A stretch of 32,000 nucleotides of DNA from Catenibacterium mitsuokai (lineage in GTDB: Bacteria > Bacillota_I > Bacilli_A > Erysipelotrichales > Coprobacillaceae), in assembly GCF_025148785.1 (NCBI RefSeq), contig NZ_CP102271.1, forward strand, positions 77,434-109,433. The letters are read 5' to 3'. The translations under genes and the position numbers were made by a program. The stretch's first letter is position 1, and each line of letters begins with the position of its first letter. Shown here piece after piece: positions 2,337 to 30,625 of this stretch. The notes below the pieces were generated by a model. The model was not told the origin of the DNA and searched no databases. It saw only the letters and a program-made list of their open reading frames with translations.

Positions 2337-2375
2337 GTGCTATACTTGTTGAGAGAATATGAAGGAGGGGGTTTT

Positions 2376-4721
2376 ATGACTCTAGATGAGTTAAAGATTG
2401 GTGAAAGTGCTACAGTGACTTATGTAGGGGGCTCTGGGTCATTAAGACAACATTTCCTAGATATGGGTTTAATACCAGGTTCTGTTGTAACATTGGAAAA
2501 ATTCGCCCCAATGGGTGATCCAATGGAATTACGTATTCATGGCTATGAGCTAACATTACGTTTAGATGATGCAAAAAAGATTGGAATAGATATGACAACT
2601 AAAGGTGTAGAGAATCATACACCTATTCCACCTATTCAACACCATATTCATCCAGGACTCGGTGAAGGTGGTAAATATCATGATAAAGAGACTGAAAATC
2701 CTTTATCAGAAGGAACACAGATTACCTTTGCGTTAGCAGGTAACCAGAACTGTGGTAAAACGACATTATTTAATCAATTAACAGGTTCTAATCAACATGT
2801 AGGGAACTTCCCTGGTGTGACTGTTGATAGAAAGAGTGGGTCTATTAAAGGACATCCAGAAACACTTGTAACTGATTTACCAGGTATTTATTCTTTATCT
2901 CCTTATACAAGTGAAGAATTAGTATCTAGACAGTATATCTTAGATGAAAAACCTAAAGGAATCATCAACATCGTAGATGCAACAAATATAGAAAGAAACC
3001 TATATCTCACTATGCAGTTAATGGAACTAGATGTACCAATGGTTCTAGCACTGAATATGATGGATGAAGTAAGAGGTAATGGTGGTTATGTTCATCTAAA
3101 TAAGATGGAAGAACTATTGGGTATCCCAGTTGTTCCTATTTCTGCTGCTAAGAATGAAGGTATTGATGAACTAGTGAATCATGCCATCCATGTAGCGAAA
3201 TATCAAGAAGCACCTTTAAGACAGGACTTTTGTGATGAAAATGATGAAGGTGGAGCAGTGCATAGATGCTTACATGCCATCATGCATTTAATTGAAGACC
3301 ATGCAAAGCGAGCTGGTATTCCATTACGTTTTGCGGCTAATAAATTAGTAGAAGGTGATGCAAGAGTAGAAGCAGCCTTAGACCTTGATACAAATGAAAA
3401 AGAAATGATTGAACATATCATTTCACAGATGGAAGAAGAAAGAGGATTAGACCGTACTGCTGCTATTGCGGATATGCGTTTTACCTTTATTAATAAATTA
3501 GTTAAAGAAACAGTGGTTAAACCACATGAAAGTAAAGAAAGAGAAAGCAGCCGTAAGATTGATGAAGTCTTAACAGGTAAATACACTGGTCTTCCTGCTT
3601 TTATCATTATTATGGGACTCGTATTCTTTTTAACATTTAATGTACTTGGTGCCTGGGGACAGTCACTTATGGAAATAGGCGTTGATGCTTTGACTCAAGT
3701 TGTAGATAAAGGACTCACTGCTTGGGATATTAACCCAGTCCTTCATTCATTAGTCATTGATGGTGTATTCCAGGGTGTTGGTTCTATTATTAGTTTCTTA
3801 CCTATTATTGTTATTTTATTCTTCTTCTTATCATTATTAGAAGATACAGGATATATGGCTCGTGTCGCTTTTGTAAGTGATAAACTACTCAGAAAAATCG
3901 GTTTATCAGGAAGAAGTATTGTGCCAATGTTGATTGGATTTGGATGTTCTGTACCAAGTGTTATGGCCAGCCGTACACTCCCTTCAGAACGTGACCGTAA
4001 GATGACAATCATGTTGACACCATTTATGAGCTGTACTGCAAAGCTTCCAATCTATGCATTCTTTGCAGCTGCATTCTTCCCAAAACAGGCTGGACTGGTC
4101 ATGGTTGGATTATATATCTTTGGTATTGTGATGGGTATTATTACAGCCCTCATTTCTAAGCGTTTCTTATTCAAAGGTGAAGCTGTTCCATTTGTGATGG
4201 AACTCCCTAACTATCGTATGCCTAGCGCAAAAACTACTTTCCAGTTATTATGGGAAAAAGCCAAGGATTTCTTACAAAGAGCCTTTGGTATTATCTTTAT
4301 CGCTTCTATTGTCATTTGGTTCTTACAGAGCTTTAATTTAAGATTAGATTTAGTCTCTAATTCACAGGATAGTATTCTTGCAATGGTGGCAGGATTTATT
4401 GCGCCAATCTTCAAACCTTTAGGTTTTGGTGATTGGAGAATTTCTACATCACTTATTGCAGGATTTATGGCAAAAGAAAGTGTTGTTTCTACACTCTCAG
4501 TATTATTTAAAGGAACAGAATCTTTAATGACAATACTTACACCTCTCGGTGCATTATCACTCTTAATATTCTGTTTATTATATACACCTTGCGTGGCAGC
4601 TATCGCTTCTATTAGAAGAGAACTAGGCGCTACATGGGCTGTGAAGATAGTTATCTTCCAGTGTGTTATTGCCTGGATTTGTGCCTTTATCGTACATACT
4701 ATTGGATTACTCTTCATATAA
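2376..4721 (+). CDS. feoB: Fused FeoA-FeoB ferrous iron transporter
   Basis: An N-terminal FeoA SH3-like domain (MTLDELKIGESATV...HGYELTLR) is followed by a His-rich linker. Next comes the FeoB G-domain (AGNQNCGKTTLFN, DLPG, NMMD) and the polytopic permease. I prefer the ATG at 2376 with a GAAGGAGGGGG RBS over the track start at 2337. Confidence 0.9.
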   Translation: MTLDELKIGESATVTYVGGSGSLRQHFLDMGLIPGSVVTLEKFAPMGDPMELRIHGYELTLRLDDAKKIGIDMTTKGVENHTPIPPIQHHIHPGLGEGGKYHDKETENPLSEGTQITFALAGNQNCGKTTLFNQLTGSNQHVGNFPGVTVDRKSGSIKGHPETLVTDLPGIYSLSPYTSEELVSRQYILDEKPKGIINIVDATNIERNLYLTMQLMELDVPMVLALNMMDEVRGNGGYVHLNKMEELLGIPVVPISAAKNEGIDELVNHAIHVAKYQEAPLRQDFCDENDEGGAVHRCLHAIMHLIEDHAKRAGIPLRFAANKLVEGDARVEAALDLDTNEKEMIEHIISQMEEERGLDRTAAIADMRFTFINKLVKETVVKPHESKERESSRKIDEVLTGKYTGLPAFIIIMGLVFFLTFNVLGAWGQSLMEIGVDALTQVVDKGLTAWDINPVLHSLVIDGVFQGVGSIISFLPIIVILFFFLSLLEDTGYMARVAFVSDKLLRKIGLSGRSIVPMLIGFGCSVPSVMASRTLPSERDRKMTIMLTPFMSCTAKLPIYAFFAAAFFPKQAGLVMVGLYIFGIVMGIITALISKRFLFKGEAVPFVMELPNYRMPSAKTTFQLLWEKAKDFLQRAFGIIFIASIVIWFLQSFNLRLDLVSNSQDSILAMVAGFIAPIFKPLGFGDWRISTSLIAGFMAKESVVSTLSVLFKGTESLMTILTPLGALSLLIFCLLYTPCVAAIASIRRELGATWAVKIVIFQCVIAWICAFIVHTIGLLFI

Positions 4722-9486: not shown

Positions 9487-9981
9487 ATGGAATCAATCGC
9501 ATTATGGTTTGCAGGAACATTAGGTAAATATATTTCACCTAAGATTGCAGTATTTATAGTTTCTTTAGTTCCTATTCTTGAATGTCGTGGAGGATTAATT
9601 GCATCTGCATTATTAAAAGTAGATATTCGTTATGCAGTTCCTATATGTATTCTAGGAAATATCTTACCAATTCCATTTATTTTGTTATTTATTAAACGTA
9701 TATTTAAATGGCTTAAGAAGTTTAACTTCTCTAGACCATTAATTGAAAAACTAGAAAACCGTGCTATGAATAAGAGTAAGGGTATGAGTAATGGTGAATT
9801 CTTAGGACTCTTATTATTTGTAGGAATCCCATTACCAGGTACTGGTGCATGGACAGGTTCTTTAGTGGCTGCATTACTTGATATGGACTTCAAGAAGGCT
9901 ATTACAGCTATCTTCTTAGGTATCTTACTTGCGACACTTATTGTTGGTTCATTATCATATGGCTTATTAGCTGCATTCTAA
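9487..9981 (+). CDS. Small membrane protein, putative small multidrug export family (COG2426-like)
   Basis: Four predicted TM segments and the ECRGG motif typical of this family. AAGGAGG RBS. Confidence 0.6.
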   Translation: MESIALWFAGTLGKYISPKIAVFIVSLVPILECRGGLIASALLKVDIRYAVPICILGNILPIPFILLFIKRIFKWLKKFNFSRPLIEKLENRAMNKSKGMSNGEFLGLLLFVGIPLPGTGAWTGSLVAALLDMDFKKAITAIFLGILLATLIVGSLSYGLLAAF

Positions 9982-9982
9982 A

Positions 9983-10007
9983 AGAGAGACTAATCATCTC
10001 TCTTTTT
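9983..10007 (+). terminator. Intrinsic terminator
   Basis: AGAGAGA-ctaatca-TCTCTCT followed by a T-run. Confidence 0.8.
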
Positions 10008-10077
10008 ATATTTCTGCACTTTCACTAATCCTTTTTTACAACCTAAACATAATTCATTTTCAAATAACCTTCTATGA

Positions 10078-10105
10078 TTGACAAGCGATATGAATTTGGT
10101 AGAAT
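10078..10105 (+). promoter_or_regulatory. Sigma-A promoter of the riboswitch-ATPase unit
   Basis: TTGACA (10078-10083), 16-nt spacer, TAGAAT (10100-10105). Confidence 0.65.
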
Positions 10106-10113
10106 GAAATTAA

Positions 10114-10232
10114 TTAAAGGGGAGTAGCTCTTACAGAACCGTTCGTCAACACGTTATGTTCAACATAACCGGATTGTTTTGGTCATTTATGATCAGCGAG
10201 ACCTTTAATAAAACGATTGTTTTTATTAAAGG
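10114..10232 (+). promoter_or_regulatory. yybP-ykoY (Mn2+) riboswitch with an SD-sequestering expression platform
   Basis: The 5' conserved block AAAGGGGAGUAGC and the 3' block AUCAGCGAGACCUUU are both present, with internal CGUCAAC and UUGGUCAU elements. A 12-bp alternative helix pairs 10202-10213 with 10221-10232. Confidence 0.85.
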
Positions 10233-10242
10233 AGGAATACAA

Positions 10243-12822
10243 ATGTATAAAAAAACAATTGAAGAAGTAGTAAACTCTTTAGATACAAATATTGAAAAGG
10301 GACTAACTTCTTCTGAAGCAAAGAAGAGACAAGGCATATATGGTACCAATGAACTAGAAAAGCCACAGAAAAGGTCTCTTCTTTTACGTTTTCTAGATCA
10401 ATTCAAGGATGCAATGATTATTATTTTAATTATTGCAGCAGTGATATCTATTGTTGTAGAACCAGGAGACTGGATTGATTCTCTAATTATTGTAATAGTT
10501 GTTATGATGAATGCGATTCTTGGTGTTGTATTAGAGAGTCATGCAGAAAAGAGTCTTGAATCATTACAGGAATTATCTGCACCACAATCAAAGGTATTAA
10601 GAGATGGTGTGAAACAGACTATAGCCTCTAAGGAATTAGTGCCTGGTGATATTATTATTCTTGAAACAGGGGATATGATTCCTAGTGATGCACGTTTAAT
10701 TGAAGCTTATAACTTAAAGGTGGATGAATCAGCCTTAACAGGTGAATCTGTTCCTGTAGAAAAGACAACTGATCCTATTAGTCAGGATGTTGTGATTGGC
10801 GACCAGACAAATATGGTCTTCTCTTCTACAGTAGTCACTTATGGTCGTGGTAAAGCAATAGTGACATCTACTGGTATGAAGAATGAAGTAGGTAAGATTG
10901 CTGGCATGTTGAATGCGAGTGAAAAGGAATTAACACCTTTACAGGTTAAATTAAATGAAATTGGTAAAACAATTGGATTACTTTGTATTGTAATCTGTGT
11001 GATTGTATTTATTCTTGAATCTATTAGCGGTATTAGCTGGTTAGAATCATTTAAGACAGCTGTTGCCTTAGCTGTTGCAGCTGTACCAGAAGGACTTGCA
11101 GCTACTGTTACTATTGTCTTAGCTGTCAGCGTGACTAAGATGGTTAAACAGCATGCCATTATTCGTAAATTACCTGCAGTAGAAACATTGGGTAGTACTT
11201 CTATTGTATGTTCTGATAAGACAGGTACATTAACACAAAATAAGATGACTATCTTAAAGACTTACTTAGATGGTGACGAAGTAAAAGATTTAGAAGAAGC
11301 AGATTCTAAGACTATTGATATGTTGAATGCATTTACTCTATGTTCTGATGCTTCTATTGATGATGGCAAGGTACTAGGTGATCCTACTGAAGTCGCACTC
11401 GTAGAAGCAAGTAAGAAGATGAACTTTGAAAAGAAAGCACTCATGGAAAAGTGTCCACGTGTAGGAGAATTAGCTTTTGATTCTGATCGTAAGATGATGA
11501 GTGTTATTGTGAAGGATGGAGATCGTTATGTGTCTATTACTAAAGGTGGACCTGATGTGATCTTAAATAGATGTCGTGATGTAGATAGTGACCAGGCTAT
11601 GACTGCCAATGATGAAATGGCTAAAGATGCATTAAGAGTTTTAGCTGTGGCAGTGAAGATATATGATACAATGCCTACTCACATTACAGTAGAAGAAATA
11701 GAAAATGATATGGACTTTATTGGGTTTGTAGGTATGATTGACCCAGCTCGTCCAGAAGCCAAAGAAGCCATTAGAGTTGCTAAGCATGCAGGTGTGCGTA
11801 CGATTATGATCACTGGTGACCATAAGACAACAGCCACTGCCATTGCGAAGGATTTAGGTATTTTAAGTGAGGGACAGGAAGTTATTTCTGGTGAAGAATT
11901 ATCTCAGATGTCTCAGGAAGAACTAGAAAAGAATGTAGAAAAATATAGTGTTTATGCACGTGTGGCTCCTGAACATAAAGTAAATATCGTCAAAGCATGG
12001 AAATCAAAGAATAAGATTGTCGCTATGACAGGGGATGGTGTCAATGATGCACCAGCCTTAAAGACTGCAGATATTGGCTGCGCTATGGGTATTACAGGTA
12101 CAGATGTAGCGAAGAATGCTGCTACTATGATCCTAACAGATGACAACTTTGCGACTATTATTCAGTCTATTAAACAGGGTCGTGGTATTTTTGATAATAT
12201 CCAGAAGGATGTACAGTTCTTATTATCAAGTAATATTGGTGAAGTACTTGCAATCTTCTTGGCTTCTATTATTGCGTTAATTAACCCTTCATGGGGATTT
12301 GGTGTTCCACTATTACCTATTCATTTATTATGGATTAACCTAATCACAGATGCTTTACCAGCCTTTGCGATTGGTTTAGAACCCGTTGAAGATGATATCA
12401 TGGATAGAAAACCAAGAGAAAAGGATGAAGGTTTCTTTGCGAATGGCTTAATGGTGAAAGTCATCTGGCAGGGTGTTATGGTAGGTTTACTTACTTTAGT
12501 TTCTTATTCAATTGGTCAGTATTTCAGTAATCATGAATATGCGATGACTATGGCATTTATCACAATGTCAGGCGCTGAATTATGTCATGCTTTTAACGTG
12601 AAGAGTCATCATTCAGTATTTAATAAGCAGGTATTCAACAATAAATATTTATGGGGTGCAACAGCTTTAGGTCTTGTATTACAGTTAGCCATCATCTTTA
12701 CACCTCTTTCTCATTTATTTAGTTTAGTGCCTCTTGATCCATCTCATTTCGCGATTGCAGCATTACTTGCATTCTCAGTTATCCCAATCGTAGAAATCTC
12801 TAAACGTTTCGATAAACGTTAA
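10243..12822 (+). CDS. P2-type cation-transporting ATPase (Ca2+/Mn2+ family)
   Basis: DKTGTLT phosphorylation motif, TGES, MITGDH and TGDGVNDAPAL. The ATG at 10243 lies 7 nt after AAAGGAGG. The track start at 10156 falls inside the riboswitch and is rejected. Confidence 0.9.
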   Translation: MYKKTIEEVVNSLDTNIEKGLTSSEAKKRQGIYGTNELEKPQKRSLLLRFLDQFKDAMIIILIIAAVISIVVEPGDWIDSLIIVIVVMMNAILGVVLESHAEKSLESLQELSAPQSKVLRDGVKQTIASKELVPGDIIILETGDMIPSDARLIEAYNLKVDESALTGESVPVEKTTDPISQDVVIGDQTNMVFSSTVVTYGRGKAIVTSTGMKNEVGKIAGMLNASEKELTPLQVKLNEIGKTIGLLCIVICVIVFILESISGISWLESFKTAVALAVAAVPEGLAATVTIVLAVSVTKMVKQHAIIRKLPAVETLGSTSIVCSDKTGTLTQNKMTILKTYLDGDEVKDLEEADSKTIDMLNAFTLCSDASIDDGKVLGDPTEVALVEASKKMNFEKKALMEKCPRVGELAFDSDRKMMSVIVKDGDRYVSITKGGPDVILNRCRDVDSDQAMTANDEMAKDALRVLAVAVKIYDTMPTHITVEEIENDMDFIGFVGMIDPARPEAKEAIRVAKHAGVRTIMITGDHKTTATAIAKDLGILSEGQEVISGEELSQMSQEELEKNVEKYSVYARVAPEHKVNIVKAWKSKNKIVAMTGDGVNDAPALKTADIGCAMGITGTDVAKNAATMILTDDNFATIIQSIKQGRGIFDNIQKDVQFLLSSNIGEVLAIFLASIIALINPSWGFGVPLLPIHLLWINLITDALPAFAIGLEPVEDDIMDRKPREKDEGFFANGLMVKVIWQGVMVGLLTLVSYSIGQYFSNHEYAMTMAFITMSGAELCHAFNVKSHHSVFNKQVFNNKYLWGATALGLVLQLAIIFTPLSHLFSLVPLDPSHFAIAALLAFSVIPIVEISKRFDKR

Positions 12823-12847
12823 CACCTGCATTGCAGGTGTTTTTTTT
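12823..12847 (+). terminator. Intrinsic terminator after the ATPase
   Basis: CACCTGC-att-GCAGGTG followed by T8. Confidence 0.85.
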
Positions 12848-12857
12848 ACTATTTCTA

Positions 12858-12886
12858 TTGCATTTATCTAATGAGAGTAGTATTAT
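12858..12886 (+). promoter_or_regulatory. Candidate orphan sigma-A promoter inside a gene-free interval
   Basis: TTGCAT (12858-12863), 17-nt spacer, TATTAT (12881-12886). Confidence 0.4.
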
Positions 12887-12892
12887 TTAGTT

Positions 12893-13000
12893 AGTAAAGG
12901 CTAACCTCCTTTACTAAACACAACATATCCTTTCATATTCTCAGTTCCTTAAAACAGAGGACATAAAAAAATCACAGGACGGCACACACCTGTGATTTTT
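12893..13000 (+). ncRNA. Candidate small RNA (about 105 nt), possibly metal-responsive (hypothesis)
   Basis: The interval runs from a promoter to a terminator with no ORF. It starts with the stem-loop UUAGUAAAGG-cuaaccu-CCUUUACUAA. It contains the anti-SD CCUCCUUU and two further CCUU motifs. It ends in the hairpin at 12971-12998 plus U7. Confidence 0.3.
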
Positions 13001-13003
13001 TTA
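12964..13003. terminator. Bidirectional intrinsic terminator
   Basis: A7, then ATCACAGG-acggcacac-CCTGTGAT, then T7. It serves the minus-strand regulator gene and any plus-strand transcript. Confidence 0.8.
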
Positions 13004-13004
13004 T

Positions 13005-13376
13005 TTAGATCTTATTTTTAAAATAAGCTTTTAATGCTTCAAAAGTTTCTGGTGAAATATAATGTTCGATACGACATGCATCCTGTGAAGCAGTAGACTC
13101 ACTGACTCCAATATGAACTAGGATATTTCTTAATTCAGTATGTCTTTCAAATATCATATTCGCAATCTTAGCACCAGCTTCTGTTAATGTGATGGCACCA
13201 TCTTCATCCATGTTGATGAGTTCCTTCTCTTTTAATCTTTTCATCTGTTGTGAAATAGTAGGTTTAGAGAAATTCATTTCACGGGCGATATCAATGGAAC
13301 GCACATGTCCTTTCTTTTTCTGAATAACTAATATAGTTTCTAAGTACATCTCTGTTGATTCACTCATTTTATTCAC
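13005..13376 (-). CDS. DtxR/MntR-family metal-dependent transcriptional regulator (short, 123 aa)
   Basis: TEMYLETI...VRSIDIAREMNFSKPTISQQMKRL wHTH, followed by a dimerisation/metal-site helix (RHTELRNIL...CRIEH). Confidence 0.85.
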   Translation of the reverse strand: MNKMSESTEMYLETILVIQKKKGHVRSIDIAREMNFSKPTISQQMKRLKEKELINMDEDGAITLTEAGAKIANMIFERHTELRNILVHIGVSESTASQDACRIEHYISPETFEALKAYFKNKI

Positions 13377-13420
13377 CTCATTTTCATCATTATAGCATAA
13401 AAATTCAAATAATGAAAAAG

Positions 13421-13509
13421 TTAGGCTTTACTAATATTTTTGTTGACATATAAAAATAGTAAGGCTATACTAACAATGAAGTTAGAAAAGGCTAATTAGT
13501 TTAGTCTAA
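13421..13509. promoter_or_regulatory. Cluster of TTAG-N6-CTAA / AGGCTAA boxes, candidate operators of the DtxR-family regulator
   Basis: TTAGGCTTTACTAA (13421-13434), TAGTAAGGCTATACTAA (13457-13473), TTAGAAAAGGCTAA (13482-13495) and TTAGTTTAGTCTAA (13496-13509). The AGGCTAA core also occurs in the classical DtxR/IdeR palindrome. Confidence 0.55.
13443..13471 (+). promoter_or_regulatory. Sigma-A promoter of the feoA-feoA-feoB operon
   Basis: TTGACA (13443-13448), 17-nt spacer, TATACT (13466-13471). It is overlapped by the box at 13457-13473. Confidence 0.7.
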
Positions 13510-13530: not shown

Positions 13531-13740
13531 ATGCCAATTAGTATGGCAAATCCTGGAGATACAGTCATTATTAGACGTATTACAGGAACTGATAAAGTAA
13601 AGAATCATCTAGCAGAACTTGGTTTTGTGGTAGATGGTGAAGTGACTATTATCAGTAAAGTGGATAACGGAATTATTTGTAATGTGAAAGGTAGTAGGAT
13701 TGCGCTTTCTGAACAGATGGCGAATCGTATATTGTTTTAA
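13531..13740 (+). CDS. feoA: FeoA-family protein
   Basis: SH3-like FeoA pattern (GDTVIIRRI...LAELGF..G..V.I). GAGGAGG RBS. Confidence 0.85.
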   Translation: MPISMANPGDTVIIRRITGTDKVKNHLAELGFVVDGEVTIISKVDNGIICNVKGSRIALSEQMANRILF

Positions 13741-13752
13741 GGGAGGAGTATC

Positions 13753-13974
13753 ATGAACTTAAAAGAAGTAAAAGTGGGCGAAACAGTAACTATTAAAAAA
13801 GTAACTGGTACAGGTCCAGTAAAAAGAAGAATTATGGATATGGGTTTAACTAAAGGACAGAATGTTTATGTAAGAAAAGTTGCACCTTTAGGAGATCCAG
13901 TAGAAATTACAGTACGTGGTTATGAATTATCTTTGCGTAAAGCAGATGCGCAGATGATTGAAGTGGAGGAATAG
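13753..13974 (+). CDS. feoA: FeoA-family protein (second copy)
   Basis: LKEVKVGETVTIKKV...RRIMDMGLTKG...GDPVEITVRGYELSLR. GGGAGG RBS. Confidence 0.9.
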   Translation: MNLKEVKVGETVTIKKVTGTGPVKRRIMDMGLTKGQNVYVRKVAPLGDPVEITVRGYELSLRKADAQMIEVEE

Positions 13975-13976
13975 TT

Positions 13977-16100
13977 ATGAAGATAGCGTTAGCGGGTAAC
14001 CCTAACTCTGGTAAAACAACGTTATTCAATGCACTGACTGGTAGTACTCAGTATGTTGGTAACTGGCCAGGGGTTACAGTTGAAAAGAAAGATGGGAAAC
14101 TAAAAGGTCATAAAGATGTGACTATCCAGGATTTACCTGGTATTTATTCATTATCTCCTTATACACTTGAAGAAGTTGTTACAAGAAGATATTTGATTAA
14201 TGAAACACCTGATGCAATCATTAATATCATTGATGGAACTAACCTAGAAAGAAACCTATATTTAACAACTCAGTTAGCTGAATTAGGTATTCCTATGGTT
14301 TTAGCTGTCAACATGTATGATATCATTGAAAAGAAGGGTGATAAGATTGACTTAGATCAGTTAGGTCAGTTATTTGGTTGTAAAGCAATGACTTTATCAG
14401 CATTAAAGGATAAAGGTACTCAGGAAGTGGCTGAAGAAGCAATTAAACTTGCACATAACCATAAGGTATCAGAACATCCTCATGTATTTGAGGGTTCTGT
14501 AGAACATGCTTTAGCACATATTGAAGAATCAATTGAAAACAAAGTAGATGCATCTAAGTTAAGATGGTTTGCGGTTAAGGTATTTGAAAGAGATGAAAAG
14601 GTATTGGCTGAACTTAAATTAGATCAGGCAGTATTAAATGAAATCGAAGGTCATATTGCGGATTGTGAAAATGAAATGGATGATGATTCAGAATCTATTA
14701 TCACAAACCAGAGATATACTTTTATTAAGAATTCTATTAATAAGGTTCTTACAAAGAAGAATCCACATCAGACATTATCTACATCAGATAAGATTGATAA
14801 GATTGTCACTAACAGATTCTTAGCTTTACCAATCTTTGTATTAATTATGTGGTTTGTTTATTACATCTCAGTATCTACAGTAGGTGACTGGATGACTAGC
14901 TGGGTGAATGATGTATTATTTACTGAAATCATTCCACCTGCAGTAGAAACTTTCCTTAAATCAATTGGTTGTGCAGCTCCATTAATCAGCTTAATCAATG
15001 ATGGTATTATTGCTGGTGTTGGTACAGTATTAGGTTTCGTACCACAGATGGCACTTATCTTCTTATTCTTAGCTATTCTTGAAGATTCAGGATATATGGC
15101 AAGAATTGCATTCATTATGGATAGACTATTACGTAAATTCGGTTTATCTGGTAAATCATTTATCCCTATCTTAATTGGTACAGGATGTGGTGTTCCAGCC
15201 GTTATGGGTACACGTACTATTGAAAATGAATCAGATAGAAGAATGACTATTATGTTATGTACATTTATTCCTTGTGGTGCGAAGACTGTTATTATTGGTA
15301 TGATCACTTCAGCATTCTTCCCAGGCAACATTTGGATTGCGCCAGCAATGTATTTCTTAGGTATTTTAGTTATTATCTTATCAGGTATCGCATTAAAGAA
15401 GACTCGTTTCTTTGCAGGTGATCCAGCACCATTCGTAATGGAATTACCAGCATACCATATTCCTACATTAAGAGGTGTATTCATCCATGTTTGGGAACGT
15501 GCAAAAGCATTCATGATTAAAGCAGGTACTATTATCTTTAGTATTTGTATCATAGTATGGTTATTATCTACATTTAACTTCTCATTCCAGATGGTTGAAG
15601 TTGAAAACTCAATGTTAGCATCTATTGGTCATGTATTTGCAACTTTATTCGCACCAGTAGGTATTGAAAACTGGAAAGGTTCAGTAGCTGTTATTTCAGC
15701 ATTAGCTGCTAAGGAACAGGCTATTTCTACTATCTCTATCTTAAATCACATGGGTGATGCAGATTCAGGTGCGAAGGCAATTCATGCTATGGTGAATACT
15801 TTCTCTGCAATGGGTGGTTTCTCATTCATGATCTTGAACTTATTCGATCCACCATGCATTGCCGCTATTGGTACAATCATGAGAGAAATGGGTTCTAAGT
15901 TCTGGGGATGGTTCGCCGTATTATATCAGATGGTATTAGGTTATGTATTAGCTATGATCACTTATCAGTTGGGTTCATGGTTATTCTATGGTGCAACATT
16001 CGGATTAGGTCAGATTCTATCAATCGTATGTATTTTAGTAATGATCTACTTCATTGTAAGACCAGCACCTAAACCAGAATTAAAGACACAGAGAGCTTAA
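13977..16100 (+). CDS. feoB: Ferrous iron transporter FeoB
   Basis: G-domain motifs GNPNSGKTTLFN, DLPG and NMYD, followed by the gate/permease domains. It is a paralogue of the protein at 2376-4721. Confidence 0.95.
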   Translation: MKIALAGNPNSGKTTLFNALTGSTQYVGNWPGVTVEKKDGKLKGHKDVTIQDLPGIYSLSPYTLEEVVTRRYLINETPDAIINIIDGTNLERNLYLTTQLAELGIPMVLAVNMYDIIEKKGDKIDLDQLGQLFGCKAMTLSALKDKGTQEVAEEAIKLAHNHKVSEHPHVFEGSVEHALAHIEESIENKVDASKLRWFAVKVFERDEKVLAELKLDQAVLNEIEGHIADCENEMDDDSESIITNQRYTFIKNSINKVLTKKNPHQTLSTSDKIDKIVTNRFLALPIFVLIMWFVYYISVSTVGDWMTSWVNDVLFTEIIPPAVETFLKSIGCAAPLISLINDGIIAGVGTVLGFVPQMALIFLFLAILEDSGYMARIAFIMDRLLRKFGLSGKSFIPILIGTGCGVPAVMGTRTIENESDRRMTIMLCTFIPCGAKTVIIGMITSAFFPGNIWIAPAMYFLGILVIILSGIALKKTRFFAGDPAPFVMELPAYHIPTLRGVFIHVWERAKAFMIKAGTIIFSICIIVWLLSTFNFSFQMVEVENSMLASIGHVFATLFAPVGIENWKGSVAVISALAAKEQAISTISILNHMGDADSGAKAIHAMVNTFSAMGGFSFMILNLFDPPCIAAIGTIMREMGSKFWGWFAVLYQMVLGYVLAMITYQLGSWLFYGATFGLGQILSIVCILVMIYFIVRPAPKPELKTQRA

Positions 16101-16106
16101 TCAATT

Positions 16107-16454
16107 ATGGGTAACATCATAGTTGCGGCTATTATTGTTGTGTTGCTCATTATAGGTGTTCTTCACTACAAGAAGACATTACAGTCAGGATGTTGTGGTG
16201 AACACGATCAAATAAAGAAAATAGGTACGGGGGATAAGGATAAAAATCTTTATCCCTATCGTACTACTCTTCATATTGACGATATGTTCTGCAAGAACTG
16301 TGCAGCAACAATAGAAAACGCATTTAATCAACATAAAGAATATCTAGCATCAGTAAACATGAATAAGAAAGAAATCACTATTCTTTCTATGAATCAACCT
16401 GATCTAGAAATATATAAACAGATGATCATCAAACTTGGTTATACTCCAAGATAA
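16107..16454 (+). CDS. Membrane-anchored protein: an N-terminus like the FeoB-associated Cys-rich family, fused to a heavy-metal-associated (HMA) domain
   Basis: One N-terminal TM segment plus a GCCG motif, resembling the next gene. The C-terminal 65 aa align to the CopZ-type fold with MFCKNC in the position of the MxCxxC motif. The RBS is weak, so translation may be coupled to feoB. Confidence 0.6.
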   Translation: MGNIIVAAIIVVLLIIGVLHYKKTLQSGCCGEHDQIKKIGTGDKDKNLYPYRTTLHIDDMFCKNCAATIENAFNQHKEYLASVNMNKKEITILSMNQPDLEIYKQMIIKLGYTPR

Positions 16455-16483
16455 ATGTATAATAGAAGCAAGGAGGAGATAGT

Positions 16484-16675
16484 ATGGGTACAATTATAGT
16501 AAGTATTTTATTAGTTATCTGGATTTGTCTTGTCCTTAGAACTATATATAAAAATAAGAAAAAAGGCATAGGTGTATGTGGACATAATTGTAATACATGT
16601 GGCACAAATGATCTATGTCATGCTGATCTCTATAAAATGTATCGTGAAGAGATGCGTAAAGAAGGGCACGCTTAG
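16484..16675 (+). CDS. FeoB-associated Cys-rich membrane protein
   Basis: One TM segment, a K-rich stretch, then CGHNCNTCGTNDLC. AAGGAGGAG RBS. Confidence 0.75.
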   Translation: MGTIIVSILLVIWICLVLRTIYKNKKKGIGVCGHNCNTCGTNDLCHADLYKMYREEMRKEGHA

Positions 16676-19602: not shown

Positions 19603-19620
19603 AGACCCAAGTTAAATAAA

Positions 19621-19845
19621 CAAATCGATGAACGAGAAGAGTATCTTACAATCACCTACAGCGAGATGACATAGAGTGGAAGGTCATCAGGAAGATATAA
19701 GAGAAACGCACTCGGGAGAGTCTGTTGGAATTGAGTATAACAGAACGTGAATCTGCGTTAATGAAGAGGTGGTTTGTATGATACAAGCAACTAGAGTGGT
19801 ACCGCGTTTATATACGTCTCTGGATTAATCCAGAGGCGTTTTTTG
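19621..19845 (+). promoter_or_regulatory. T-box leader (tRNA-sensing riboswitch), specifier CGC (Arg), with terminator
   Basis: Stem I elements are present (GAUGAACGAGAAGAGUA, AGCGAG...AGUGGAA). By alignment to the B. subtilis glyQS leader, the specifier is CGC at 19707-19709 followed by A. The T-box sequence AGAGUGGUACCGCG lies at 19793-19806. The terminator is CGTCTCTGGA-ttaa-TCCAGAGGCG plus T6 (19815-19844). Confidence 0.85.
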
Positions 19846-30549: not shown

Positions 30550-30625
30550 TGGTGACCGGTACGGGATTCGAACCCGTGAATGCATGCGTGAAAGGCATGT
30601 GAGTTAACCGTTTCTCCAACCGGCC
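30550..30625 (-). tRNA. tRNA-Glu (anticodon UUC), CCA-encoded
   Basis: The reverse complement is GGCCGGTTGGAGAAACGGTTAACTCACATGCCTTTCACGCATGCATTCACGGGTTCGAATCCCGTACCGGTCACCA. It folds as a cloverleaf with anticodon loop CUUUCAC. It is close to tRNA-Glu of B. subtilis as I recall that sequence. Confidence 0.9.

Follow-up and report, generated by a model that had tools for sequence, protein, structure and literature searches.

A candidate iron-responsive small RNA gene under a DtxR-type operator in Catenibacterium

Introduction

In model bacteria, iron economy depends centrally on iron-responsive small RNAs (sRNAs). In Mycobacterium, IdeR, which belongs to the DtxR family, has a binding site near the transcription start of MrsI (ncRv11846), a stand-alone sRNA of ~100 nt; a short conserved stretch precedes the Rho-independent terminator of MrsI, which spares iron by pairing with 5′ untranslated regions (5′UTRs) (PMC6016810). 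In Staphylococcus aureus, the start site of IsrR is closely followed by a Fur box; this RNA pairs with Shine–Dalgarno sequences through single-stranded C-rich regions and is conserved at the level of the genus (PMC9410917). Here, we analyze a 32-kb stretch of Catenibacterium DNA (hereafter the window) and, within it, a short interval between the gene for a PMR1/SERCA-like P-type ATPase and a convergent gene for a DtxR-family regulator. We read this interval as a probable sRNA gene.

MrsI is the closest analogue of the candidate: It has a DtxR-family site near its start, a similar size, and a terminator, as predicted for the Catenibacterium RNA. The two have no sequence or Rfam relationship. 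The MrsI seed is a 6-nt hairpin loop, in contrast to a conserved block of 26 unpaired nucleotides in Catenibacterium; the host of MrsI belongs to the Actinobacteria rather than to the Bacillota/Erysipelotrichales; and the Catenibacterium regulator, at 120 aa, has two domains and lacks the third, SH3-like one. IsrR and FsrA (Bacillus subtilis), both iron-repressed Firmicute sRNAs, are similar as well, IsrR also in box placement and in its pyrimidine-rich single strand. Both are Fur-controlled, however, and show no sequence similarity to the candidate, which carries UCCUUUC rather than C runs. RyhB and PrrF share the logic of a metalloregulator-repressed sRNA beside or within an iron regulon, but they belong to Proteobacteria, depend on Fur and on Hfq, and are not homologous to the interval.

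A first-pass annotation of the window, which proposed an sRNA gene at this position, could name no matching described RNA. That statement holds for Rfam families, but a functional analogue exists in MrsI. Because it has no sequence relationship to any of the sRNAs compared here, the candidate would found a new RNA family within a known functional class.

Results

Promoter and Conservation Pattern

Relatives were collected by a protein-based scan with one genome per species, followed by protein search and contig look-ups. The comparison set comprised five other Catenibacterium species, two more distant lineages (L043 and L054), and 33 metagenome contigs; chance expectations and target counts refer to the window. 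Nucleotide identity over the locus is 94–96% with the five other species. L043 was fetched without reference to the interval, and its identity to the window is given segment by segment in Table 1. At its core, the proposal (an sRNA gene controlled through a DtxR-type operator) is supported by this comparison, in which the promoter, the operator match, the 5′ hairpin, the presumed seed, and the terminator are all conserved.

The promoter named in the first-pass annotation, TTGCAT and TATTAT separated by 17 nt (12858–12886), lies where it had been placed. Its −35 hexamer is invariant across five Catenibacterium species and reads TTGAAA in L043, nearer the consensus, and TTGCAA in L054. The −10 hexamer is identical at 6/6 positions in L003, L005, and L043, the last of which gains an extended −10 element (TGT ahead of TATTAT); other variants have TACTAT or TATCAT. 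The hexamers stand 17 nt apart in every variant except an indel-rich, low-quality contig (L075, 15 nt), whereas identity to the window within the spacer is 10/17 in L005, 6/17 (35%) in L043, and 9/17 in L054. Hexamers conserved around a free spacer are a classical sign of a working promoter, and a decaying remnant would be unlikely to keep its hexamers in register beside a diverging spacer. Promoter-like sites are no commoner in the window than in shuffles (5 found, 6.1 expected); the promoter is thus unremarkable by sequence statistics, and its decisive support is comparative.

As previously annotated, the interval contains no plausible open reading frame: None of at least 20 aa occurs on either strand between 12823 and 13004. 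Conserved promoter hexamers, a conserved terminator, and the lack of a reading frame together describe an independent unit at the sequence level.

Operator and Regulator

A box with the core TTAGTAAAGGCTAA (12891–12904) begins 4 nt past the −10 hexamer and therefore covers the predicted start site. The first-pass annotation had reported that this box is identical at 13/14 positions, in reverse complement, to one at 13421–13434 in the control region shared by the regulator and feo genes, and we obtained the same match. The pattern TTAG-N6-CTAA occurs four times in the 32 kb, always within 12891–13509, against an expectation of 0.97; only 1 of 100 shuffles reaches four. TTAG and CTAA are invariant in the sRNA box in all variants, and they are likewise invariant among species in the boxes of the regulator/feo control region, where the inner six bases vary.

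The same signature accompanies the regulator family beyond this locus. In 45 loci from many taxa, the 260 nt that precede the regulator homologue contain TTAG-N6-CTAA at 18-fold the density found elsewhere, and in lineages where the regulator and feoA are co-oriented this motif flanks the feo promoter instead. The consensus of 37 boxes outside Catenibacterium is aGTTAGt....aCTAACt. The sRNA box, AGTTAGTAAAGGCTAACC (12889–12906), matches it in full and is the sole one of the window's four boxes with both the flanking G and the flanking C. By sequence match, an iron-repressor operator thus overlies the predicted start site and is shared with the regulator's control region, and the box at the sRNA start is very likely the operator of the neighboring DtxR/IdeR-type repressor.

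The classical DtxR/IdeR operator consensus is TTAGGTTAGCCTAACCTAA, a 19-mer that contains TTAG-N6-CTAA units. The Catenibacterium boxes resemble it in their palindromic TTAG...CTAA core, but the predicted unit is a 14–18-bp AGTTAG-N6-CTAACT whose inner six bases are unconstrained, and such units often stand in tandem or in spaced pairs.

The residues of the regulator also point to iron. In an alignment to IdeR it keeps Met10, Cys102, Glu105, and His106, whereas MntR proteins carry Asp and Glu instead; from DtxR/MntR metal-selectivity work, we take this Met/Cys/Glu/His set to be an Fe(II)-type primary site. The best NCBIfam matches of the regulator, all sub-threshold, say MntR; the ligand residues are nevertheless of the Fe type. 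Its ATG at 13367 is preceded by a GAGGTG Shine–Dalgarno sequence, and database homologues are 120 aa long. The GTG at 13376 given in the list of open reading frames was rejected as the start since homologues have 120 aa; an exact look-up of the 123-aa protein accordingly gave no match. The stop codon (13005–13007) lies 2 nt from the shared terminator, and on the other side of the regulator feoA-feoA-feoB (13531–16100) are transcribed divergently from it.

RNA Structure and Presumed Seed

The predicted RNA has a minimum free energy (MFE) of −30.6 kcal/mol (z = −6.6 against shuffles). Its MFE and centroid folds have four parts: a 5′ hairpin (12891–12917), an unpaired region (12918–12945), a small hairpin (12946–12961), and the terminator. 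To count hairpins, we folded 20 distinct variants one by one.

The perfect 10-bp inverted repeat pointed out in the first-pass annotation (12891–12900 with 12908–12917) is predicted to form an RNA hairpin, found in 20/20 variants with a stem of 9–12 bp and a loop of 4–8 nt. Two of its pairs change on both sides: Pair 5 goes from U-A to C-G in L003, L043, and L044, and pair 10 runs through G-C, G·U, and A-U in a series that involves L064 and L065. The further suggestion, a 27-bp palindromic DNA operator, did not stand. In five variants the CTAA of the right arm becomes CTGA, a change that no genuine box tolerates; the right arm is therefore an RNA pairing partner rather than a second operator half-site. 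We give the CTGA wobble little weight as pairing evidence, because a start at 12893 would leave the first two pairs outside the RNA.

The region that follows the hairpin, our presumed seed, is identical at 26/26 positions in L001–L005 and L043, all retrieved independently of it. The first-pass annotation had listed three anti-Shine–Dalgarno motifs in and after the hairpin. The first, CCTCCTTT, is present at 12905–12912. It was to complement AAAGGAGG ribosome-binding sites throughout the window, which proves overstated: That exact 8-mer occurs twice on the plus strand, with 1.0 expected. UCCUUU and UUCCUU are both present, at 12928–12933 and 12945–12950, one base to the left of where they had been placed. 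UCCUUU can be regarded as accessible, since UCCUUUC falls in the unpaired invariant 26-mer, but UUCCUU forms the 5′ arm of hairpin 2. That hairpin is found in 19/20 variants with a stem of 5–7 bp; in L043 and L054 its stem consists instead of UUUCCUU/AAGGAAA, and its loop is shorter.

The terminator hairpin with its U7 tract was confirmed. It is a G+C-rich stem-loop followed by a U tract, as expected of an intrinsic terminator, with A7 at 12964–12970, an 8-bp stem (12971–12978 with 12989–12996) that includes five G-C pairs and encloses a 10-nt loop, and T7 at 12996–13002. Because A7 precedes the stem, the terminator is predicted to be bidirectional and common to the convergent regulator gene. 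Its stem is invariant in the 20 variants, with no compensatory change. The loop (12979–12988; ACGGCACACA) is nearly invariant as well, differing at two positions and, in 4/20 variants, by a 1-nt insertion. The ATPase terminator, 130 nt off, varies freely in both loop and stem.

Distribution

In the window the genes run UDG, Sm_multidrug_ex, ATPase, interval, and regulator. By protein search and contig look-ups, the L043–L046 lineage, whose regulator is 86% identical, keeps both the ATPase and the interval. Three lineages with regulators of ~70% identity (L047, L051, and L094), one of them Intestinibaculum porci, have neither; in these, a convergent Sm_multidrug_ex gene lies 13–24 nt beyond the regulator. 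Since the ~70% lineages are without both, the ATPase and the interval represent an insertion specific to the Catenibacterium-type clade, placed by gene order between Sm_multidrug_ex and the regulator (window 9487–13376 compared with L047, L051, and L094). L047 has an IS200-type Y1 transposase near the locus.

When metagenomes were scanned with a 20-mer taken from the conserved core, 38 loci were retrieved. Five were chance matches, and 33 were the same syntenic locus, the divergent lineage L054 among them; the sRNA locus is single-copy, and all 33 true matches are syntenic. A covariance model of the RNA (R1), run on 66 sources, matched every Catenibacterium-type locus and no other regulator locus; its opposite-strand matches are terminator palindromes. 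Rfam 15, at gathering and at permissive thresholds and with FsrA, RsaE/RoxS, RyhB, and IsrR included, has no family for the interval, and all sub-threshold matches in 12780–13060 are terminator-driven. Searches of plasmid and phage databases gave no match to the interval, and literature searches gave nothing on sRNAs in Catenibacterium. By these comparisons, the predicted RNA is specific to the Catenibacterium-type clade. The expectation that relatives with both flanking genes would conserve the interval holds for promoter, box, and terminator but not for CCUCC.

Table 1. Features of the locus and its surroundings in window coordinates; the last column gives identity of lineage L043 to the window
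Feature	Position	Strand	Basis or remark	Identity in L043
−35 hexamer TTGCAT	12858–12863	+	Read in sequence, conserved position	
Promoter spacer, 17 nt	12864–12880	+	Length kept, sequence free	6/17
−10 hexamer TATTAT	12881–12886	+	Read in sequence, conserved	6/6
Predicted sRNA transcript, ~110 nt	12893–13002	+	Start from −10 position, end from terminator	
Predicted operator AGTTAG-TAAAGG-CTAACC	12889–12906	.	Core TTAG-N6-CTAA 12891–12904, over predicted start ~12893	
Hairpin 1 (5′)	12891–12917	+	Left arm = operator box, right arm = its RNA pairing partner	
Invariant single-stranded region ACACAACAUAUCCUUUCAUAUUCUCA, presumed seed	12918–12943	+	Contains UCCUUUC; unpaired in MFE and centroid folds	26/26
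Hairpin 2	12944–12963	+	Folds; core UCCUU 12946–12950 with GAGGA 12957–12961	
Bidirectional intrinsic terminator (A7, 8-bp stem, 10-nt loop, U7), shared	12964–13002	.	Sequence, both-strand folds	35/39
DtxR-family regulator coding sequence, 120 aa from ATG 13367	13005–13367	−	Pfam Fe_dep_repress + Fe_dep_repr_C	81%
Regulator/feoAAB control region	13421–13509	.	Three boxes (13421–13434, 13482–13495, 13496–13509) surround feo promoter	
feo promoter TTGACA-17-TATACT	13443–13471		Within regulator/feoAAB control region	
Candidate target site GAGAAUAUGAAGG	2353–2365	+	Tentative; overlap of 5′UTR and Shine–Dalgarno sequence, FeoA-FeoB fusion gene 2376–4721 (Pfam)	
ATPase coding sequence				75%
feoA coding sequence				83%
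ATPase terminator				59%

Neighboring Features

Two proteins are encoded after feoB, at 16107–16675: one of 115 aa with a weak HMA-domain match and a FeoB_associated-type protein of 63 aa. In L043, a rubredoxin/rubrerythrin-type gene comes next. The genes after feoB probably belong to the same iron regulon. Several other lineages have a GTTAG-N6-CTAAC box of consensus type inside the operon, where a short gap separates feoA from feoB (L047 ~2872, L051 ~2798, L094 ~2262; also L007, L008, L010, and L028). Catenibacterium has no feoA–feoB gap or box of that sort.

The ATPase leader (10113–10243) had been labeled a Mn riboswitch in the first-pass annotation. The strings AAAGGGGAGUAGC ... CAGCGAGACCUUU, by eye hallmarks of yybP-ykoY Mn2+ riboswitches, are indeed present at 10113–10207, but the Rfam Manganese model does not confirm the label, scoring 9.3 bits where 45 are needed. 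A hairpin in this leader would sequester a AAAGGAGG Shine–Dalgarno sequence at 10228–10235, and the ATPase probably starts at ATG 10244 rather than at 10156. Elsewhere in the window, the only gathering-level Rfam matches are a T-box leader (19619–19824, 130.9 bits) and a tRNA gene (30553–30625).

Discussion

The selective pattern of conservation suggests, with good probability, that 12858–13002 is a real, independently transcribed sRNA gene. With moderate confidence, we favor a full mechanism in which its product is an iron-repressed, trans-acting, base-pairing sRNA. A sigma-A-type promoter (TTGCAT-17-TATTAT) would start the RNA near 12893, inside a 16–18-bp operator (AGTTAG-N6-CTAAC) of the DtxR/IdeR-like, Fe(II)-type repressor whose gene lies alongside in convergent orientation. 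The iron-bound repressor would sit on this operator and block the sRNA promoter, as it would at the adjacent feoAAB genes, and scarce iron would derepress both. The 5′-terminal hairpin probably shields the 5′ end of the RNA. The remainder would consist of the 26-nt invariant unpaired stretch with its UCCUUUC core, the small hairpin 2, and the terminator common to the regulator gene. We infer that the unpaired stretch most likely pairs in trans with the ribosome-binding regions of mRNAs, adjusting the proteome to iron limitation.

Several findings weigh against this reading. The −35 hexamer matches TTGACA at only 3/6 positions, and a consensus scan left the promoter uncalled; that scan was uninformative here, as it missed both the promoter (−35 3/6) and the terminator (10-nt loop). 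All carriers of the locus are closely related (at least 81% nucleotide identity over it), so covariation is thin. Automated counts gave six covarying pairs, but four of these came from L044 aligned one base off register, and we replaced the counts by per-sequence folding. Because the metagenome variants were fetched with the seed 20-mer, their seed identity is circular, and the unbiased set is limited to L001–L005 and L043–L046. CCUCCUUU, which had been read as an anti-Shine–Dalgarno element, is not conserved: The length of the loop varies, and CCUCC occurs only in window-type variants.

The target search, limited to the 32-kb window, adds further points on that side. Duplex energies of the seed are no better than those of shuffled seeds, whose best energies over that set of sites average −25 kcal/mol. 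The longest complement to the seed, 11 nt in Watson–Crick pairs and 13 with G·U, lies in the 5′UTR of a FeoA-FeoB fusion gene, which encodes another Feo transporter, but an 11-mer complement somewhere in the window is expected in ~45% of shuffles. Cofolding ranks the fusion site first of 41 translation-initiation regions by a narrow step (−14.7 versus −14.1 kcal/mol), not as an outlier.

At the fusion 5′UTR, the best in-window duplex has −19.7 kcal/mol, and a pairing of ~14 bp to the seed is kept in three variants of this UTR (−18 to −21 kcal/mol). We treat the fusion mRNA as a lead, not as a finding, and that it is a target is doubtful. The 5′ region of the fusion gene (2300–2375) starts with the terminator of a Tpt1/KptA gene that lies upstream; a promoter of the extended −10 type (TGnTATACT) and a 5′UTR of ~25 nt are the other parts. 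It is almost invariant (compared with L069, L092, and L093), even where the protein is just 80–84% identical. It contains no TTAG-N6-CTAA box. We rejected the notion that the seed is an inverted copy of this 5′UTR, as the similarity stops beyond ~15 nt.

Among the alternatives, the RNA might be made but act locally on the convergent regulator gene, either by interference or by RNase III-type cleavage of a 3′-end duplex, lowering regulator mRNA at low iron and reinforcing derepression. The geometry would allow it: The sRNA and regulator genes converge on one bidirectional terminator, 2 nt past the regulator stop, which gives the two RNAs ~39 nt of perfectly complementary 3′ ends. This terminator, loop included, is unusually conserved (35/39 in L043) with no compensatory change, while that of the ATPase varies freely. 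A strong terminator speaks against read-through, however, many convergent gene pairs share a bidirectional terminator that has no special role, and the invariance of 26 unpaired nucleotides upstream is left unexplained. As the sole account, local action is unlikely; a local effect on the regulator as an additional role is possible.

The RNA might instead bind a protein or sponge another RNA, with no pairing to ribosome-binding sites. The window offers no convincing mRNA target, and an invariant block of 26 nt exceeds the typical seed of 6–8 nt. Yet the block is pyrimidine-rich, its UCCUUUC is complementary to the GAAAGGA-type Shine–Dalgarno sequences typical of Firmicutes, and the succession of 5′ hairpin, unpaired region, and terminator is the layout of base-pairing sRNAs such as IsrR. 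The lack of a target, moreover, comes from a search that covered 32 kb only, and we consider a protein-binding or sponge role quite unlikely.

The first-pass annotation had itself offered a further alternative, an orphan or decoy operator left by an old rearrangement. In a fuller version of it, the box and a promoter remnant would date from the insertion of the ATPase between the regulator and Sm_multidrug_ex, and the box would bind the repressor but yield no functional RNA. The interval does belong to a lineage-specific insertion—the ~70% lineages have 13–24 nt there and no ATPase—and the match of the promoter to consensus is modest. A remnant should decay evenly, however, whereas here the spacer and loops have changed and the hexamers, the box, the seed, and the two hairpins have been conserved; the seed is identical at 26/26 positions where neighboring intergenic DNA is 35–73% identical. 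Failing to explain the invariant 26 nt and the conserved hexamers, the decoy is very unlikely. A minus-strand micro-peptide of 10–15 codons (AAGGAA, 8 nt, ATG AAA GGA TAT GTT GTG ...), for which one could cite the spacing of the Shine–Dalgarno-like AAGGAA ahead of the ATG at 12936–12934 and the placement of codons 1–6 (MKGYVV) within the invariant block, is improbable in the extreme, as it would lie directly downstream of the regulator terminator with no promoter of its own, its C-terminus shifts in frame and length with hairpin-loop indels (10, 14, or 15 codons by species), zero synonymous changes indicate nucleotide-level rather than protein-level constraint, and the conserved plus-strand promoter hexamers would go unexplained.

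If the favored reading of an iron-repressed, base-pairing sRNA holds, a more specific and speculative version, rather unlikely at present, makes the sRNA a switch between two ferrous-iron transporters. Iron scarcity would derepress feoAAB and the sRNA together, the sRNA would silence or retune the FeoA-FeoB fusion through 2353–2365, and its 3′ end might also feed back on the regulator. In that case, a gut Firmicute would exchange one transporter for another through an sRNA, under the control of a DtxR-type regulator.

None of the iron sRNAs compared here comes from the Erysipelotrichales or from other strictly anaerobic gut commensals, and those of Firmicutes (FsrA and IsrR) are Fur-dependent. 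The Catenibacterium locus, if read correctly, would mean that the same regulatory design has arisen independently under a different metal sensor, and its operator, seed, and candidate Feo target would give a compact, testable point of access to the way an abundant gut genus manages its iron. More broadly, the AGTTAG-N6-CTAACT consensus provides a regulon signature for the widespread minimal 120-aa DtxR-like regulators that adjoin feo genes.

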